From Deltaproteobacteria bacterium (GTDB lineage Bacteria; Desulfobacterota; Deferrimicrobia; Deferrimicrobiales; Deferrimicrobiaceae), in contig JACRNP010000029.1 in NCBI GenBank assembly GCA_016234845.1, forward strand, positions 1-59,324: a DNA stretch of 59,324 nt, in the 5' to 3' direction. This document shows, piece by piece, positions 38,087 through 46,033 of the stretch. The notes under the pieces were generated by a model that worked only from the letters and a program-made list of their open reading frames with translations, ran no database searches and was not told where the DNA came from. The first letter of the stretch is position 1, and each line of letters opens with the position of its first letter. The translations under genes and the position numbers were made by a program.

Positions 38087-40249
38087 GTGGGATACCAGTC
38101 GGGACGATTCGTCGGGACGGGGGGTTCGCCGGGGGTGGAGAGGATCCGTTCGCAGGACCGATCGGGGGATTTCTTCCTTGTGGCGGTCCTGGTCGCCAAT
38201 TTCACGTGCGGGATCCTCCTTCTGCTCTGGTTGCGCGCGGATCTGACCCGCGACCTGATCGACGACGAGAGGACGCTCGTCTCCTCCAGGGTCAACTCGT
38301 ACCTGTGGGGAAAGATCGTCCTGTTTGCGTCGTCCGTGGGCGCCGACGGGCGTTTGATGCCGGTGGGCCGCGGGTTCCCCTCGGAGGTGGGTCCCGTGAC
38401 ATTCGTTCGGGAACTGCCGCCGGACGAAAGCTTCGAACGGGTCCGCTCCGGAACCGGCGGTCTGCTTCCCTTGTTCCTTGGAAGGCCTCGGGAGGAAGCC
38501 GGGAGAGGATCCGTGCTCCCGCTGGCGGCCCACGTCGCCGGATTGACCGGATCGGATCGGTACGTGCTCGGATCCGTATCCCTCGCGGACCTTTCCGGGT
38601 ATTTCACCGACCTCAAGGCACACGGAATCCTTTGCCGGCTGGTCGACTCGGGAGGAAATCACCTCTTCGGGGACAAGGAGGCCTTCGCCGCGCCGGGCGG
38701 ATCGTGGGTCCTCGGGACCGCGCCGATCCTTGCCGGCGGGATCGGCAACGGGTGGTCCGCGCAGGTTTTCATCATGTCCGCCGGTCCGCACCTTCCCATC
38801 CTGCCGCAGGCGATCCTTGCGCTGTTCTTCCTGTTCAACGCCGCGACGCTGGTTTTTCTCCGGAAAAGGTTCCTGCGGCCCCCCCTCGACGCGCTGGACA
38901 GGATCTCCGGGGCATTGTCGGAGCAGGGGGAGCTTCTTCCCCGACAAGCGCCTCCGCGCCAGATATCCGACGCGGTGACAAGCCGGTTCGTCCGCTTCCG
39001 GAAGGAGATCGAGGAGGAGCGGATCGCCCTCGAGGAGAAGTTCGCGAGGCAGGTCAACGACCTTGGGCAGGCGCACAAGGACCTGGTCGCCCACCACAAG
39101 GTGACGAAGAAGATGCTCCAGTCCCGCCGGATCGACGAGGTGTTCGACACCCTCCTGGACGGCATCGCCGAGGGGTACGGATTCCGGGGGGCGCTCCTGG
39201 GGAAAGTTTCCAGGGACGGTTTCGTCGTTTTCGCCGGGGAGCCGGATCCGCTGTCCGGCGTTCCGACGCGGATCCCGTTGTGGAATCCGAACTCTCTCCT
39301 TGCGAGGACATTCTGGAGCGGGACAAGCGCCTTCCTGCCGACTCCGCTCGAAACGCCCCACCTCCCGGAAGAGGAGGCGATCCTGGGGGAGCGTGGCGGG
39401 GCTTCGTACGTCGTGCCGGTCACGAGGAACCTCAAGTCGCGGTGCGCCGACATCAGGAATTGCGGCGATCGGAGCTGCATCAATTTCTTTTCCGAGAACC
39501 TGAAGTGCTGGCTTCGTCGGATCCCCCCCGGATCGTTCATTCCCGACGCCGACCCGGAGCAGTTCCGGGTGCCGCTCGAGGGGTGCCTTCAGTGCGAGGT
39601 CTTCCCGTCGGCGGCGCTTCTTGTGCTCCGCACCGTCCCGAACGGGAAGGGGATCACTCGGGAAACCGTCGTCCCGGTCTCCACCCTTGCGTCCGAGGCG
39701 ACGCTTGCCCTTGAGGTCGTATCCCTCTACGACAACATGAAGTTAATGGCTATAACCGATGGTTTAACAGGGCTTTTCAATCACAGAGAGTTCTACAATG
39801 CGCTCCGCCGGGAACTGGAACGGGCTCGTCGGTACAAGCACAACATGTCCCTTCTCATGATCGATGTGGACGACTTCAAGCAGTTCAACGATCGATTCGG
39901 CCACCCCGCAGGGGACATCGCGCTGAGGAAAATCGCCGACCTGATACGCGGATGCGCCCGCACCACGGACATCATCGCGAGATACGGAGGGGAGGAGTTC
40001 GCCCTCATCCTGCCGGAATCCCAGCCGGTCGGCGCCTTGATGGTAGCGGAGAGGATCAAGACGGAGATCTCATATCACAACTTCATCCCGAACGCGAGCA
40101 AACCGGTACATCTAACCGTAAGCGTTGGTGTATTTTCATCGGAAGACGGCGGGGTCTCGGAAGACCAGATGGTTTCCCTTGCGGACGAGGCGGCATACAC
40201 CGCAAAGCAGCAGGGGAAGAACCGGGTCGTGGTGAAGGCGGCCACATAA
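38087..40249 (+). CDS. Membrane-anchored diguanylate cyclase (GAF-like domain with Cys-rich insert + GGEEF)
   Basis: Two TM segments, DGLTGLFNHR, IDVDDFKQFNDRFGHPAGD, RTTD I-site, RYGGEEF. Confidence 0.9.
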   Translation: MGYQSGRFVGTGGSPGVERIRSQDRSGDFFLVAVLVANFTCGILLLLWLRADLTRDLIDDERTLVSSRVNSYLWGKIVLFASSVGADGRLMPVGRGFPSEVGPVTFVRELPPDESFERVRSGTGGLLPLFLGRPREEAGRGSVLPLAAHVAGLTGSDRYVLGSVSLADLSGYFTDLKAHGILCRLVDSGGNHLFGDKEAFAAPGGSWVLGTAPILAGGIGNGWSAQVFIMSAGPHLPILPQAILALFFLFNAATLVFLRKRFLRPPLDALDRISGALSEQGELLPRQAPPRQISDAVTSRFVRFRKEIEEERIALEEKFARQVNDLGQAHKDLVAHHKVTKKMLQSRRIDEVFDTLLDGIAEGYGFRGALLGKVSRDGFVVFAGEPDPLSGVPTRIPLWNPNSLLARTFWSGTSAFLPTPLETPHLPEEEAILGERGGASYVVPVTRNLKSRCADIRNCGDRSCINFFSENLKCWLRRIPPGSFIPDADPEQFRVPLEGCLQCEVFPSAALLVLRTVPNGKGITRETVVPVSTLASEATLALEVVSLYDNMKLMAITDGLTGLFNHREFYNALRRELERARRYKHNMSLLMIDVDDFKQFNDRFGHPAGDIALRKIADLIRGCARTTDIIARYGGEEFALILPESQPVGALMVAERIKTEISYHNFIPNASKPVHLTVSVGVFSSEDGGVSEDQMVSLADEAAYTAKQQGKNRVVVKAAT

Positions 40250-40250
40250 G

Positions 40251-41057
40251 ATGGATCCGAATGGACGCGAGCCTTTCGACAGCCGGTTCAAGGCCGCCGT
40301 CGAAAGGAACTTCGACCAGAGCGCGCAGGCGTACGACCTGTTCGAAGGGAAACACCATCTCTTCGAGACGCTTACGCAAAAGCAGCTGGAACTGATCGAG
40401 CCGTCGCGCCCGGAACGGATCCTGGACGTGGGATGCGGGACCGGGATATCGACCCTTGCGCTCCACAAGTCGCTCGCGGGCCGATCTCCCCACATTTACG
40501 CGATCGACATCAGCGAGGCGATGCTCCACCAGGCGAAGGAGCGATGCCGCAAGGCGAGGGGGGTGTATTTCGTACGCGGGGACGCGGAAAATCTGGAGGC
40601 GTATTTCCACGAGGCGTTCGACGCGATCTTCTACACCGCCTCCGTTTTCCTTCTCCCGAGATTCGCCGATTCGATCCGACAGGCGAGCCGGCTGCTTCTT
40701 CCGGGAGGGGTTCTTTCCATCAGCTACTATTCCGGATTATTCACGTCGGAAGGGGAGGATGCCATCCGGAAGACATTCCCGGAGTTGAGGTACCAGTACG
40801 GGGCATTTCCCATCCACGAACTCCTGGCGTGCCTCGAATCGCTACACGAATACCGGACGACGAAGGTCGACCTGCGTTTCGAGGCGACAAGGGAGTTCCT
40901 GTTCGATTTCCTGTCCATTCCGGCGCAGTCGGCGGGACTGTTTCCAAAGGTTCCGTACCTGGAACGCATTCCGATGGTCCGGGATCTGTGCGCGGTGCTG
41001 GAAGCGAAGGCCGGGCCGATCTACATGGGGTGGAAGGTGCTGATCGCCCGGAAGTGA
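40251..41057 (+). CDS. Class I SAM-dependent methyltransferase
   Basis: RILDVGCGTG motif I, AIDISEAML, VRGDAENL. Confidence 0.85.
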   Translation: MDPNGREPFDSRFKAAVERNFDQSAQAYDLFEGKHHLFETLTQKQLELIEPSRPERILDVGCGTGISTLALHKSLAGRSPHIYAIDISEAMLHQAKERCRKARGVYFVRGDAENLEAYFHEAFDAIFYTASVFLLPRFADSIRQASRLLLPGGVLSISYYSGLFTSEGEDAIRKTFPELRYQYGAFPIHELLACLESLHEYRTTKVDLRFEATREFLFDFLSIPAQSAGLFPKVPYLERIPMVRDLCAVLEAKAGPIYMGWKVLIARK

Positions 41058-41078
41058 GCGTTGCCGCCATTCGACGTT

Positions 41079-41106
41079 ATTTGACATAATATACATTACC
41101 AGACGT
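41079..41106 (-). other. dif: Chromosomal dif site (XerC arm - spacer - XerD arm)
   Basis: Minus strand ACGTCTGGTAA TGTATA TTATGTCAAAT vs E. coli GGTGCGCATAA TGTATA TTATGTTAAAT; intergenic; gene orientation converges here. Confidence 0.88.
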
Positions 41107-41468
41107 AACCGCCCCATGGATCGCATTTTGATCCTTCTCTGAATTGGTGTCAAGACCAATTTTTCCCCTTCATAATCGGTCCTCCGCTTCGCGTCGCTCA
41201 CCTGGTCCTTTATCGTTTGCCTGTTGGGTAAAACATCAGACAATAATCTTGCGGGTGCGACGCGCTCCACGGGAGCTACGCTTTTTCGTACCAGGACGCC
41301 TGTTGCTGCGCCCCGCCAATGCGACAAAGTACCTCGCGGGGCGCATTCGTCTATAAGTGGTTGGTTTGCTTTGCGGGTAATAGTTACACACGCGCTGCGC
41401 TTTGTGGCGACATACGGGCTGAGTCCGGACTGTATTTGGAACGAATCAACATCTATCTTTGAAAATTG

Positions 41469-41870
41469 TTATTTCAATTTTTTATCAAGTATTGAACTTA
41501 TAATATTAATTTCTTCTGTTATTTTATGTGCTTTTAAATATGCATTTATCCATAATTCTCTAAATACAGTGTAAACGTGTTCATATTTCTCCCCAAGTAA
41601 TCTCTGAAAATCAATACCCTCAAAGTCTTTTCGGTTAAGAATAAATATGATTTGCCTCCCTTTAGATAATGATAGCGCATGATCGGGAGGTGCGTCTCTT
41701 TCATCCAAATCAGGTATCTCTTTTAATGATAGCCCATATTCTCCTTCTAATGGAGCAACAAGCATGCTTGTGTCAGCGGTTTTTTCCCATTGAATTACAC
41801 CTTTTAAGGTACCTTTAAATATCTTTGTGAATAAAGCTATAACTTCTGCATTTATTGGAAAGTCGGCCAT
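41469..41870 (-). CDS. Hypothetical soluble protein, 133 aa (IMEX cargo)
   Basis: Very AT-rich intact ORF, SD-like GAGGGG, 12 nt downstream of partner gene. Confidence 0.75.
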   Translation of the reverse strand: MADFPINAEVIALFTKIFKGTLKGVIQWEKTADTSMLVAPLEGEYGLSLKEIPDLDERDAPPDHALSLSKGRQIIFILNRKDFEGIDFQRLLGEKYEHVYTVFRELWINAYLKAHKITEEINIISSILDKKLK

Positions 41871-41882
41871 ATGATCCCCTCT

Positions 41883-42371
41883 CTACTTTTTGTTGATTGT
41901 TGATTCGTACTTTCCATATTCTGCTGCCAGAATAGTACTTAGCCTAACAGCTACAGAGAGTATTCCTGACATTTCTGATTGATTAGGGGTTCTAATTATA
42001 AATTTCCTGAATTGTGAATTCAATGTATCTAATTGAGTTATTGTCAAACTAAGATTTGATTTCGTATCATCACAAAAATGATCAGACCATCTGTTTATTA
42101 TAAACGTTAGCCTAAGAATTAGCCTATTACAAATAAATGATGCAACTGGCCAAATACTATTTTCAGAGTTAATTTTAATTAAATTAATATCATCTCCGCA
42201 TTCCCTTAACTCTTGAGCGACAGATTTTCTCTCTATAAGATTTCTTGCCTCAACTGCGGCTTCCTCTGCCCGCTTAGACACTTTCAAAACATAAAGAGTA
42301 AAAATAAGACCAAATAAGCTCGCTATGTTCCCCCAATTTATCAATAACCAATCAGCAATATTGTTAATCAT
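41883..42371 (-). CDS. Hypothetical protein with one N-terminal TM helix, 162 aa (IMEX cargo)
   Basis: WGNIASLFGLIFTLYVL hydrophobic helix followed by a helical region; AT-rich intact ORF. Confidence 0.75.
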   Translation of the reverse strand: MINNIADWLLINWGNIASLFGLIFTLYVLKVSKRAEEAAVEARNLIERKSVAQELRECGDDINLIKINSENSIWPVASFICNRLILRLTFIINRWSDHFCDDTKSNLSLTITQLDTLNSQFRKFIIRTPNQSEMSGILSVAVRLSTILAAEYGKYESTINKK

Positions 42372-42612
42372 TATGGTTTATAAAACCTCGAATTTCAAAA
42401 ATGCCACCTATCCACCCTTCTGTTTCGATAACACACGGTTGCATAACTGTGTTTCTATGTCAAGAAGGAGCGAAAAGTTGAAGAAAGAATTAATCTTTTT
42501 TGAAGATGATTGTTCGGAATGCACCATCAAGTGAATCGAAATATCAGGGTGCTGTTAGTTCTAACGGACTTCCGGTTCCGCCTAGAAAATCCAACCCGCG
42601 GTGGCCATGAAG

Positions 42613-42648
42613 AAGGACGGCCAAGCCCTCCGGGCTTTGCCCGTCCTT
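42613..42648. repeat. GC-rich hairpin in the non-coding part of the island
   Basis: AAGGACGG-CC-AAGCCC-TCC-GGGCTT-TGC-CCGTCCTT, 8+6 bp stems. Confidence 0.6.
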
Positions 42649-43077
42649 GTATCCAATCGTAAAAGTGATTCTTGGATTTGGTTATGATGATCCCATCAAG
42701 CACCGGGGATCTTCCAAAAATTCCCCGTGCTTCCTCGATACGTATCAAGTCCGGGTGTGCCTGCGACGCTGTGACTCGCTCTCGACCGAGAAGCCGTACG
42801 ATCTACACCTTAGAGCGTCACCGAGTCCAGCAGGACAGCAGCTCCGCCAAAGTGTCCCGCCTGTCCAAAACGGCACACCCGTTATCCTTGGCGCGAGCCC
42901 AGAGCATTCTGGCATCATCCACATGCCCCCTTGACCGGCTTCTCGGCGACGTACGCTATATTTCCTTGCGGACGTCAGATGTACCCTATCTCCCGGTTGG
43001 TGAGCGTCGGCCTCGATTCTCGGAATTCAATTTAACGTTATTCCCGAAGCCCCAGGATATAAGCCAGCAGCCCCCTT

Positions 43078-43533
43078 TCACTTATTTATGAAGCATCCCC
43101 GCCAGCAACATCGCTCACGTTCGAACTTCCGAGCAGAAGAAATCAGGGCTTCGACCTCCTGCCGCAAGTAGCCCTTTTCCCGTGGCCCCAAATGCTCTGC
43201 CGCTTCCTTTCGATTGTTCAACCACTCCCTCATTTTCCGGAATCTTTCCGTGTCCGTTCCTTCCAGCAAGCGGAACACAGGAAGAACCGTTTTGACGCAC
43301 CATTCCTTGTACAGGACAAGAGATTCAAGGCGCGCCTGTTCCTTTTCGTCGGAAACAGCGTTCGCCCTGACCTTATAGAAAAACGGTTGTGTGAATTGAT
43401 GAACGAGAGAGAGAAAACGGAGAATTTCTTTTACCGCAACCTGATCGGTTTCCATGACGATCCGGTAGCGGTCGCCATGCTGCCGAACTTCGATGAGTTT
43501 GAAATCAGAATTGACTTGAGAGTTGCTAAGCAT
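43078..43533 (-). CDS. Hypothetical protein of about 151 aa (IMEX backbone); the reading frame extends to 43689
   Basis: Longest ORF of the island, next to the degenerate dif copy; start uncertain; no recognisable family. Confidence 0.55.
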   Translation of the reverse strand: MLSNSQVNSDFKLIEVRQHGDRYRIVMETDQVAVKEILRFLSLVHQFTQPFFYKVRANAVSDEKEQARLESLVLYKEWCVKTVLPVFRLLEGTDTERFRKMREWLNNRKEAAEHLGPREKGYLRQEVEALISSARKFERERCCWRGCFINK

Positions 43534-43711
43534 ATCCGACCGGCCCCCATCATCCAACAAGGGATTTTCCGGCGGATACGCATGTTTCTTACAACCACGA
43601 AGTTCAGTTCGACTGTGTCCGTGCCCGGTAGCATCAACACAGCCCTGTGGTTCTTGGGGGTATTCTATCGAATTCCGCCGCCCCGTCAAGGAGTATTTTC
43701 TCCTTTAAGGA

Positions 43712-43739
43712 CGGAAGGTTAATATACATTACCAGACGC
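43712..43739 (-). repeat. Second dif-like site with degenerate XerD arm
   Basis: Minus strand GCGTCTGGTAA TGTATA TTAACCTTCCG. Confidence 0.82.
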
Positions 43740-43765
43740 AGCAGGAATCGATAATCCCCGGGGAT

Positions 43766-46033
43766 TCAAGCCCCCCACATCCGCTCCGAGAAGTCCGATC
43801 CCGGCAGTTCAGCGGAAAACGTCCCGTACATGGGCCACCGCTCCCCAAGCGTCCCCTTCGGCTGGATCGTGATGAAGAACTCCAGCCGTTCGTCCTTCAC
43901 GCAGTCGATCAGCTCGAACGGAAACCCGATCTCCACGACTTTCGAATACGCCATCCGCACACCGAATTCGTGTTCGGCCTCCAGGACGGATGGACCCGGG
44001 TCCGCGTGGTGGGATCCGCCGAAACCGGAAAACGTGCACGAAGATGTTCCCTCCGGAAGATTCAGGTCGATTCGCATCTTCCGGTTCTTTTCGGGGAAAA
44101 GAAGCTCCAGGGTGACCTCGGTCGTGTTCTCCGTCGCCACCGGGTCGATGTCGAACCGAAAGAACAGTTCGGTCTTGCTGAAGCCGTAGAAGAACGAGGA
44201 AAGGATAAGGCGAGCGGCCCGGTGCATCGTGCCGAATTCGGGGTTCGGGATGTAATGGAAGGCAGAACTCCATTCGAAATAGGAAGTTACGATCCCGTCG
44301 ATGTTCGGATGGATGTAGGACATTGGCGCCGGTATGGCGTTTTTCCTGGACGGAATCCTTTCGGCTTTGATGATCGGAACATCCAGCATATCCGGTGGAT
44401 TAATGCCCATCGAATTATATGCGGCTTTAATGTTGTGGCGAAACAGGCGGTCGAATTCGGGACCGTGCGGAGTGAAATGGTCGTCCCCGTACCACCAGCA
44501 CCAGTCGGACCCTTCCGCCGCGAATATGTACTCCTCGGCCTCCTTCAGTTTTTCCGGCACCGCCTCTCCCGATTTTTCGAAGTTCCCCGCCTTCGATTCC
44601 CAGAGGGATCGAACCCGCGACAACATGTCCCAGGCGGCGTGGTCCTCGGGGTGCCCGATCCATATATGGAATGTCCCGTCGATCCAGGAGCCGGTAGGAA
44701 CCGACGGCAGCTCCTCGAACGTCCGGGTCTGTTCAAGCGCCTCGGAAACGGGCACGCATTCGACCACGGGACGGAGCTGCTCGAGTTTCGACATGAGCGT
44801 CCTCAGGAAGTAGACTCCGGAATCCGGAAAATATTCCCAGGCGTTTTCGCCGTCCAGGATCACGGGGACGATCGGATCGTCTCCGTAATATGTTGAATTG
44901 TTACTTGATAATGAATCGTATATGCACTTGATATTATGTACAAAATTATTTGCGGCATCGTCCGCGTTCCACCGGGAATACTCGAAGCCGATGAGGTCCG
45001 AAAGACGATGGTCGCGGAAGAGGATCCGGATATCGCCCGAAGGGGTTTTCACGGAGTACGGCCGGTACAGCCATCGGGGCTCCATGGGAATACCGTCGGA
45101 ATTCCGATGGATCGGTTTGCCGAGCGCCTTGGAAAGGAGCGCCTCGTCCGTTGCGATCCAGCGAAAACCCGCCTCGGAGGCGAGATCGAGGGTCGCGGGG
45201 CTGATGGACCCTTCCGACGGCCATAAACCTTTCGGATTCGCCCCGAACAGGTCGCGGAAGACGTCCCTCCCCCGCTCCAGCTGCCTTCGGGCGTCTCGCG
45301 GGAAGGAGAACGGCATCGAGGGGAGCGACGCGCCCGGCCACGCGTCCTGCGCGGACCGGTTGTCGATCAGCAGGGGGAGGATGGGATGGTACATCGGGGA
45401 CGACGAAAGCTCCCCGCCGTCCTCCTTCTCGAGTTTCCGGTACTCGTCGAACATGGCGCCCATCACGTCGATCTGGCGGTCGAGGACGTACTGCTTCTCT
45501 CTCTCCGTGTACCGACCGCCCTTTCGCCAGAGCCGGGATAGCTCTGGGTCCTCCTCGAGATGGAGCGGGTGGTACCAGGCCAGGTTGAACAGGGTGACGA
45601 GGTCGGTGTACTCCGAAGCGCCGAAGGTCCCCGAGCGGCCGTTTCCCCGGAGGGAGCGGATCGCGTTTTCATGTCCACGGAACAGCTCCGCGTACCGGGG
45701 CTGGGGGAGGATCATCGTCGGCGCGAACGCGGAAAAGAAGTTCCGGAGGATGAATTCCTCCTCGTCCCTCGAAAGGTCCAGGGCGTTTTTCCGGGAAACG
45801 GCGAGGAAGATGTCTTCCGCTCCGTTTTCGACGTAGTCCCGGACCTGGATCAGCAGGGAGGGGACCAGGTTGAACGTGTGCCGCACGCCCCGGAACTCGC
45901 GGAAGATCCGCGGGAGGGAGACGTAATCCTTGACCGCGTGGAGGCGCACCCATGGGAGGGTGTAGGTCCCGGTTTCCGGGTCCTTGTAGTACGGCTGGTG
46001 CATGTGCCAGAGAAAACAGAGTCTGAGCTTCAT
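43766..46033 (-). CDS. Glycoside hydrolase family 57 (amylopullulanase-like)
   Basis: WHMHQPYY, YHPILPLL, GLWPSEGS (nucleophile Glu), ILDGENAWE (acid/base Asp), AEGSDWCWW. Confidence 0.92.
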   Translation of the reverse strand: MKLRLCFLWHMHQPYYKDPETGTYTLPWVRLHAVKDYVSLPRIFREFRGVRHTFNLVPSLLIQVRDYVENGAEDIFLAVSRKNALDLSRDEEEFILRNFFSAFAPTMILPQPRYAELFRGHENAIRSLRGNGRSGTFGASEYTDLVTLFNLAWYHPLHLEEDPELSRLWRKGGRYTEREKQYVLDRQIDVMGAMFDEYRKLEKEDGGELSSSPMYHPILPLLIDNRSAQDAWPGASLPSMPFSFPRDARRQLERGRDVFRDLFGANPKGLWPSEGSISPATLDLASEAGFRWIATDEALLSKALGKPIHRNSDGIPMEPRWLYRPYSVKTPSGDIRILFRDHRLSDLIGFEYSRWNADDAANNFVHNIKCIYDSLSSNNSTYYGDDPIVPVILDGENAWEYFPDSGVYFLRTLMSKLEQLRPVVECVPVSEALEQTRTFEELPSVPTGSWIDGTFHIWIGHPEDHAAWDMLSRVRSLWESKAGNFEKSGEAVPEKLKEAEEYIFAAEGSDWCWWYGDDHFTPHGPEFDRLFRHNIKAAYNSMGINPPDMLDVPIIKAERIPSRKNAIPAPMSYIHPNIDGIVTSYFEWSSAFHYIPNPEFGTMHRAARLILSSFFYGFSKTELFFRFDIDPVATENTTEVTLELLFPEKNRKMRIDLNLPEGTSSCTFSGFGGSHHADPGPSVLEAEHEFGVRMAYSKVVEIGFPFELIDCVKDERLEFFITIQPKGTLGERWPMYGTFSAELPGSDFSERMWGA

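Follow-up and report, generated by a model that had tools for sequence, protein, structure and literature searches.

The 59,324-nt contig JACRNP010000029.1 of Deltaproteobacteria bacterium (assembly GCA_016234845.1, family Deferrimicrobiaceae), referred to here in its full length as the window, carries at the chromosomal dif site a short insert that contains two adjacent genes, designated A and B (Table 1). In the original prediction, which was made from the sequence alone, these had been described as two intact open reading frames (ORFs) lying 12 nt apart and clearly more AT-rich than the rest of their island, and had been proposed to form an orphan defence or addiction module. Both ORFs were recovered at exactly the predicted coordinates, on the minus strand, which had not been specified previously. 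The difference in composition was also confirmed, since the guanine-plus-cytosine (GC) fraction of positions 41501-42500 was 0.33-0.35 compared to 0.50-0.55 in the remainder of the insert and about 0.66 in the whole window. With regard to the complete genome, the pair has a GC content of 33% in a background of 66%.

The pair is conserved on other contigs, and the ratio of nonsynonymous to synonymous substitution rates (dN/dS, Nei-Gojobori method, calculated only where synonymous sites were unsaturated) was 0.09-0.19 for A and 0.08-0.17 for B; A and B are therefore real genes under purifying selection. The database gene caller placed A at a shorter start, giving a product of 132 amino acids, and the 162-residue form is the correct one because homologs retain the N-terminal hydrophobic segment. 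As judged from their arrangement, A and B are probably co-transcribed. A Shine-Dalgarno-like motif precedes B within the short intergenic spacer, and in all homologous pairs (10 other loci) the two genes are either separated by 2-19 nt or overlap. The AT-rich region upstream of A, which could hold a promoter or operator, is not conserved at the homologous loci and, for this reason, regulatory signals in it are unproven; likewise, a promoter and terminator scan of the A-B locus revealed nothing beyond the expectation from shuffled sequence.

The same gene order recurred wherever A was found. In 11 out of 11 independent A-bearing loci, at identities down to approximately 25%, an A-like gene was directly followed by a B-like gene, so that the pairing looks obligate. 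These loci (loci and genomes are cited by L and G numbers) include the window, L003, L004/5/46, L006-8, L009, G257/L032, L034, L035, L038 and L047, and the upstream gene was assigned as A-like by hhalign with a probability of 93% in G257 and of 99.9% in L047. A word-indexed search of 5.8 billion proteins returned only a single B relative along with seven A relatives, and the contigs encoding the latter all harbored a B-like gene immediately downstream. No close relative of A, and none of one B homolog, was present in 185,579 species-representative genomes, and a scan of 400 genomes from the same phylum yielded just one further B homolog, that of G257. The GC content of the pair was below that of its flanks in 10 of the 10 loci compared and, on this compositional and comparative basis, the A-B pair appears to be horizontally acquired and mobile. 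DNA similarity among the A-B loci was confined to the two coding regions, and neither dif-like sites nor flanking repeats could be convincingly recognized around the other loci.

We then consider the insert in which the window pair resides. The dif site is identical to that of Escherichia coli at 20 of 28 positions, including the complete spacer (6/6) and 10 of the 11 positions of the XerD arm, and four genomes of the family (G005, G008, G014 and G016) have this 28-mer, with 0-2 changes, beside the methyltransferase gene that also adjoins it in the window. The cumulative GC skew of the window reaches its maximum at around position 41000. At the opposite end of the insert there is a degenerate dif-like site. 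The stretch of 2.6 kb is bracketed by 19 nt repeated perfectly and in direct orientation at 41087-41105 and at 43720-43738, and the genome contains only these two copies. In G004, G005, G006 and G018 the site is empty, with the methyltransferase gene, dif and the GH57 gene being contiguous, and the segment 41107-43711 is therefore an insertion. The dif flanks and the empty sites in relatives bear out the proposal of A-B as mobile-element cargo.

No recombinase domain (Phage_integrase) was detected in the ORFs of the element, and two Xer-type genes lie elsewhere in the genome, one of them encoding an XerD equivalog with a score of 329 bits, which is at the cut-off. Two dif-type flanks, an empty site in relatives, and the absence of an own recombinase in a host that possesses Xer genes are properties of integrative mobile elements exploiting Xer (IMEX). 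Moreover, an insert placed between dif-type sites is the geometry known for XerCD-exploiting elements (reviews: PMC5357621; bioRxiv 10.64898/2026.06.12.731946). Taken as such, the carrier would be a small, XerCD-dependent, IMEX-like and integrase-free element, whose mobility is deduced from the comparison of genomes. It shares with IMEX of the TLC/GGI type and with the pdif modules of Acinetobacter an integrase-free insertion exactly at dif, one complete site together with one site having a degenerate XerD arm, XerC/D-type recombinases located elsewhere in the genome, and different cargo at the same site in related genomes. It differs from them in its size of only 2.6 kb, in the lack of replication or phage genes, and in its occurrence in an uncultured high-GC lineage; furthermore, its backbone consists of a 203-residue ORF without recognizable relatives among known families and a conserved non-coding block of approximately 460 nt. 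A filamentous phage was also considered as the identity of the element and discarded, as replication and morphogenesis genes are missing. With respect to the non-coding block, which lies downstream of the 203-residue ORF, near-identical blocks alternate with indel-rich stretches when the window is aligned with genome G001, and RNAalifold predicted 83 base pairs, 7 of them with compensatory changes, in this alignment of only two sequences. The block possibly acts as a structured RNA or as a single-stranded DNA site of the element that folds; a search of positions 40000-45000 against Rfam gave no match.

Table 1. Coordinates of the features at the dif locus of the window (position 1 is the first nucleotide of the contig).
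Feature	Coordinates	Strand	Description
dif site	41079..41106	minus	ACGTCTGGTAA-TGTATA-TTATGTCAAAT
Inserted element	41107..43711		Lies between the two dif-type sites; A-B is its AT-rich variable cargo
Stretch between dif and the B stop codon	41107..41468		360 nt, about 50-55% GC; no convincing ORF or RNA found
Gene B	41469..41870	minus	133 amino acids, contains IQWEKTAD, ends LWINAYLKAHKITEEINIISSILDKKLK; from ORF list; putative regulator, antitoxin or sensor partner
A-B spacer	41871..41882	minus	12 nt with Shine-Dalgarno-like AGAGGGGA preceding B
Gene A	41883..42371	minus	162 amino acids, starts MINNIADWLL; from ORF list; putative membrane effector
Region upstream of A	42372..42520	minus	AT-rich, putative promoter/operator; inverted repeat with 8-bp stem at 42433-42452
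Non-coding backbone block	42615..43077	minus	About 460 nt, conserved in G001 (L020:2800-3215)
Backbone ORF	43078..43689	minus	203 amino acids; no Pfam, PADLOC, PHROG or NCBIfam match
Degenerate dif-like site	43712..43739	minus	XerC arm, spacer and 3 further nt in common with dif; XerD arm unrelated

Other inserts were observed at the same position in related genomes. A sister element in G001 adjoins the same GH57 gene and starts with a degenerate site, and it encodes a 219-residue ORF (L020:2140-2799) with 69% amino acid identity over 192 residues to the 203-residue ORF of the window. At the place in this sister that corresponds to the interval between window positions 42683 and 42655, there is an inserted cassette of 1.6 kb, which contains a type II DNA methyltransferase gene (Pfam N6_N4_Mtase, 4.6e-41; PADLOC MTase_II, 1e-63) and an overlapping gene for a 218-residue protein; according to these matches, the cassette is a probable restriction-modification system. 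Next to follow are an orphan ORF of high AT content and a gene for an ISL3 transposase. Between dif and a degenerate site, G016 carries an insert of about 0.86 kb with 31% GC that encodes a transglutaminase-like protein, and G014 one of about 1.4 kb encoding a YiiD_C thioesterase. The dif of this bacterial family thus repeatedly holds small elements, and A-B fills the variable part of one of them. The dif-type inserts examined in L020, L022, L023 and L024 differ among genomes of the family. As a separate observation, genome G008 (L021, G008:C4:15500-26500) contains around 8.3 kb with a host-like GC content (65%) between dif and GH57, where no second dif-like site was detected; a rearrangement might account for this stretch, or it may be an insert old enough to have ameliorated.

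Regarding protein A, the AlphaFold2 model obtained with a small alignment (predicted local distance difference test, pLDDT, of 87) consists of helices 13-70, 74-94, 101-126 and 131-161. The first helix is hydrophobic over its initial 19 residues or so and then runs into an up-down four-helix bundle. The hydrophobic anchor spans approximately residues 11-29 and is followed by a stretch rich in lysine and arginine (K/R). All 10 members of the A family inspected have a single N-terminal hydrophobic segment, with Kyte-Doolittle values of 1.45-2.55, and all of them have few K/R residues ahead of the anchor and 2-5 within the 15 residues after it. These results agree with the description of A as a helical protein of 162 residues with a single transmembrane segment, and the charge distribution predicts an N-out, C-in anchor with a cytoplasmic bundle. 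In the widened alignment of A, the invariant residues were G14, S18, G21, A38, R48, L55, R94, Q120 and E133. The first three form a small-residue face on the anchor (G14-x3-S18-x2-G21), which is the best-conserved feature of the family and suggests helix-helix oligomerization.

Two candidate activities of A were discarded. The first was that of a HEPN-type RNase (Rx4-6H), given that the window protein has only R94-x3-H98 and that this histidine is not conserved; the Foldseek match of A to HEPN ranked 42nd among many generic bundle matches. The second was a metal or disulfide site formed by Cys58 and Cys81, both of which are invariant among close relatives and missing in distant homologs.

Protein B was modeled by AlphaFold2, also from a small alignment, with a pLDDT of 85 as an alpha-beta4-alpha-alpha protein (a helix, four beta strands and two helices). 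It is mildly acidic, with an isoelectric point of 5.6, and has no hydrophobic segment. Across the family, only core Trp, Ala and Leu residues are conserved. A search with the B profile against 1.84 billion representatives recovered 73 clusters, which come from metagenomes only and comprise nearly exclusively stand-alone proteins of 130-150 residues. At the C-terminus of 17 of the 54 full-length representatives, acidic residues precede a terminal [IVLP]P[FL], as in DDIPF, DDDEVPF, EDDEDVPF and DDPPF (alignment A4: P0013, P0015, P0018, P0019, P0023, P0026, P0029, P0032, P0033, P0036, P0038, P0042, P0048, P0061, P0075, P0076 and P0078). The C-terminal docking peptide (SSB-Ct) of the single-stranded DNA-binding protein SSB is DDDIPF (PMC11981726), and DUF669 proteins of prophages are proposed mimics of SSB-Ct (PMC13687109). 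Like SSB-Ct, about one third of the B family thus ends in acidic residues plus [IV]PF, although B has neither an OB fold nor a relationship to DUF669. Such a tip is present in B proteins paired with A-like proteins (L034, L035, L038 and L047) and in one coupled to a PIN toxin. In contrast, the window B, which terminates in SSILDKKLK, and its whole subclade lack the tip and end in KKLK, KEEE or KEEKK; the SSB-like tip is therefore a lead for the family and not a property of this locus.

In several cases, B occurred without A. At L033:4188-5683, it forms an operon of the order HTH_17, PIN_3/VapC50_C and B, in which the B tail is DDDEVPF and B, translationally coupled to the toxin, has a 4-nt overlap with the PIN gene; this B-family protein may be the third component of a VapBC-like module. 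In L025/26, B lies after the integrase of a relaxase-bearing element and immediately ahead of a gene for a protein without family assignment, and in L029 it stands alone beside surE. Separately, the protein encoded downstream of the distant B in L026 (3252-4046) contains the motif RHIYEH, which fits the Rx4H pattern of HEPN, and has no family match. With a PIN toxin and another partner coupled to it, the B family has alternative effector partners, and a modular exchange of this kind is typical of conflict systems.

Searches for known families were uniformly negative. Pfam, NCBIfam, PHROGs and PADLOC returned nothing for A, B or the 203-residue ORF. In PADLOC-DB v2.0.0, no family reached E<=1 for A or B, and the distant A-like proteins encoded in L047 and G257 matched none at E<=0.001. 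When 54 B and 9 A family members were compared with Pfam, only scattered single matches at E>0.01 and no consistent family were obtained, and sequence-profile searches of PDB with small and large alignments gave nothing meaningful. The failure to recognize a family in the original prediction was hence reproduced with all of these resources. In the structure comparisons proposed there, Foldseek placed A only among generic four-helix bundles (PsbQ, FAT domains and designed proteins), and B had no credible fold match in PDB (best E of 0.047, TM-score of 0.29) and no match among BFVD structures.

The surroundings of the pairs at other loci comprised defence and mobility genes as well as ordinary ones. 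Neighbors were an Old/GajA-like nuclease in L035 (3.5e-39), PDC-S32 in L038 (3.4e-62), an HmaB/PglX-like methyltransferase in L034 (2.7e-23), a fragment of the XcyI restriction enzyme in L009, a NikA-like mobilization protein in L004, and DUF559 and DUF433 proteins in L047; in L003 and G257, only housekeeping genes were found. Defence-type neighbors were accordingly present in L034, L035, L038, L009 and the G001 sister element, and in none of L003, G257 and L029. In L009 (3761-4243), the A homolog is interrupted by an in-frame TAG in place of the conserved Trp95, with the remainder alignable to the end, and B is intact, which is as expected if A is the harmful partner.

Based on the pairing, the purifying selection, the low GC content of the pair, its carriage on a dif element and the defence or mobile neighbors, we tentatively interpret A-B as a conflict module made up of two genes, either toxin/antitoxin-like or acting by abortive infection, that travels as exchangeable cargo at dif, a reading to which we attach slightly less than even confidence. 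According to this model, A would be tethered to the inner membrane through its single N-terminal helix, the small-residue face of which would drive helix-helix oligomerization, and the cytoplasmic four-helix bundle would be the regulatory part of the protein. B would act as a cytoplasmic, non-enzymatic binding protein that either holds A inactive or senses a trigger. Upon loss or titration of B, A would oligomerize and damage the membrane, and growth would stop, the outcome being either stabilization of the element (addiction) or an aborted phage infection. The binding of B to A, the toxicity of A, the trigger and the protection against phages are all inferred.

A comparison with known systems places A-B near several of them. 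Like RexA/RexB of phage lambda and KwaA/KwaB of Kiwa, it consists of adjacent, co-oriented genes for one membrane and one soluble protein, and it is present on mobile DNA, at several loci beside other defence genes. Unlike them, it shows no sequence or profile similarity to these systems (PADLOC), and A has one membrane helix plus a cytoplasmic four-helix bundle, while RexB and KwaA are multi-pass membrane proteins; B, the fold of which is unmatched, is also much smaller than either RexA or KwaB. With type II toxin-antitoxin (TA) and toxin-antitoxin-chaperone (TAC) systems, A-B has in common a small, adjacent, co-oriented, tightly spaced and co-inherited pair on mobile elements, one locus with a broken A and an intact B, and one B homolog as the third gene of an HTH-PIN operon, in the manner of an accessory or chaperone component. 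It departs from them in that B has neither a DNA-binding antitoxin domain nor a SecB-like match, that A matches no toxin family, and that the putative toxin gene comes first. Because all homology tests failed and B lacks an antitoxin DNA-binding domain, A-B, as far as can be judged from sequence, resembles RexAB, Kiwa and TA pairs and is a member of none of them.

Several results weigh against a conflict module. By the sequence and profile searches described above, neither A nor B is homologous to any toxin, antitoxin or defence protein, and the model of B matched no HTH, RHH or AbrB fold, so that B is devoid of the DNA-binding domain that type II antitoxins commonly contain. No relative of the module was recovered from 50,697 phage records (INPHARED), 72,556 plasmid records (PLSDB) or IMG/VR. 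The hydrophobic segment of the window A is only moderately hydrophobic, with a Kyte-Doolittle value of 1.52. The neighbor contexts derive from around 13 loci, mostly short metagenome contigs, and have no formal background rate, and L003, G257 and L029 look like housekeeping regions over the few kb that are visible. Finally, the TAG codon of L009 is one observation on one metagenome contig, and could represent either decay of a putative toxin or an assembly error. The proposal of a defence or addiction module consequently finds partial support, all of it from genomic context: pairing, mobility, mobile carriage and defence or mobile neighbors favor it, and the missing PADLOC model, the missing antitoxin DNA-binding domain and the three housekeeping loci do not.

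A rather unlikely alternative is that A-B forms a membrane docking platform for DNA metabolism, in which B would use its tip to attract or titrate SSB-client enzymes, with A keeping this activity at the membrane, and without any toxicity. Such a platform could modulate replication, repair or the processing of incoming DNA, including the exclusion of foreign DNA. The SSB-Ct-like tip in 17 of 54 full-length representatives of B, its likeness to the docking peptide, the proposed mimicry by DUF669 proteins and the pairing of tip-bearing B with A-like proteins in four loci would all suit this explanation. It is at odds with the tip-less subclade of the window, which keeps A and shows that the tip is not essential to the pair, with the non-OB, mildly acidic character of B, and with the lack of any SSB-client gene that is consistently nearby. 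In addition, a conflict system accounts better for the coupling of a tip-bearing B with a PIN toxin.

Less probable still, the pair may be a moron derived from a prophage or another element, in which A blocks DNA entry or counters a host system and B is an accessory, with no suicidal component; it would then serve superinfection exclusion or anti-defence. Exclusion is a frequent role of small, membrane-anchored proteins encoded by mobile elements, and L006 has a weak tape-measure-like neighbor (E of 0.0066, under the Pfam cut-off). However, the pair had no relative in the phage genomes, IMG/VR or BFVD structures searched, and most of A is predicted to be cytoplasmic instead of periplasmic, which is unusual for injection blockers.

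We regard as quite improbable that A-B serves the element itself, i.e., its maintenance, its transfer or the control of Xer recombination. The pair does lie inside an element that has dif on one side and the degenerate dif-like site on the other, and known dif-integrated elements can carry their own Xer-modulating factors. Nevertheless, the backbone in common with the sister element is the 203-residue ORF and the 460-nt block, and not A-B; the other A-B loci revealed no dif-like sites or flanking repeats, their DNA homology ends at the two coding regions, and other elements at the same dif carry unrelated cargo. The hardly credible notion that A and B are chance frames in AT-rich junk or functionless, decaying pseudogenes, to which the extremely low GC content in a high-GC host and the lack of family matches and of a convincing promoter or terminator might point, is effectively refuted as to gene reality by proteins conserved at 10 or more other loci with dN/dS values of 0.08-0.19 and saturated synonymous sites, by confident AlphaFold models of both proteins, and by the 73 clusters recovered with the B-family profile.

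Returning to the conflict module, we also entertain, as a long shot, a broader reading in which the B family would be the portable sensor or adaptor of a new class of conflict systems with alternative effectors, namely A, a PIN nuclease and one or more additional partners. In approximately one third of its members, the SSB-Ct mimic would serve as bait for phage or plasmid proteins that seize the SSB tip and that, being detected in this way, would trigger the effector. The window pair would then be a tip-less variant, carried as swappable cargo by an XerCD-dependent element of minimal size, in a lineage where dif repeatedly captures different small elements.

If A-B is a working defence or addiction module, it would add two protein families without known relatives, and in the case of B a fold that is unmatched in PDB and BFVD. 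It would also offer a mechanistic handle, with a single-helix membrane effector and a regulator that recurs with other effectors and often has an SSB-type docking tip. If it is neither toxic nor protective, A-B stays an orphan mobile gene pair. The pair is rare, its two families are uncatalogued, and it joins a now numerous group of candidate two-gene defence systems. Independently of its function, the 2.6-kb element and the sister inserts suggest that dif is an exchange hot spot for small cargo genes in this uncultured family, which, if true, takes the exploitation of Xer far outside Vibrio, Neisseria and Acinetobacter.

Two minor observations were made in the course of the searches. A protein of 3652 residues (P0047) matched the B profile with an E-value of 3.5e-19 and no single stretch reported, and is probably a repetitive or compositional artefact. 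In L009, a 161-nt duplication with 88% identity (1534-1694 and 2740-2900), corresponding to the 3' end of an aminotransferase gene, surrounds the gene of a trypsin-like protease and resembles an insertion scar.

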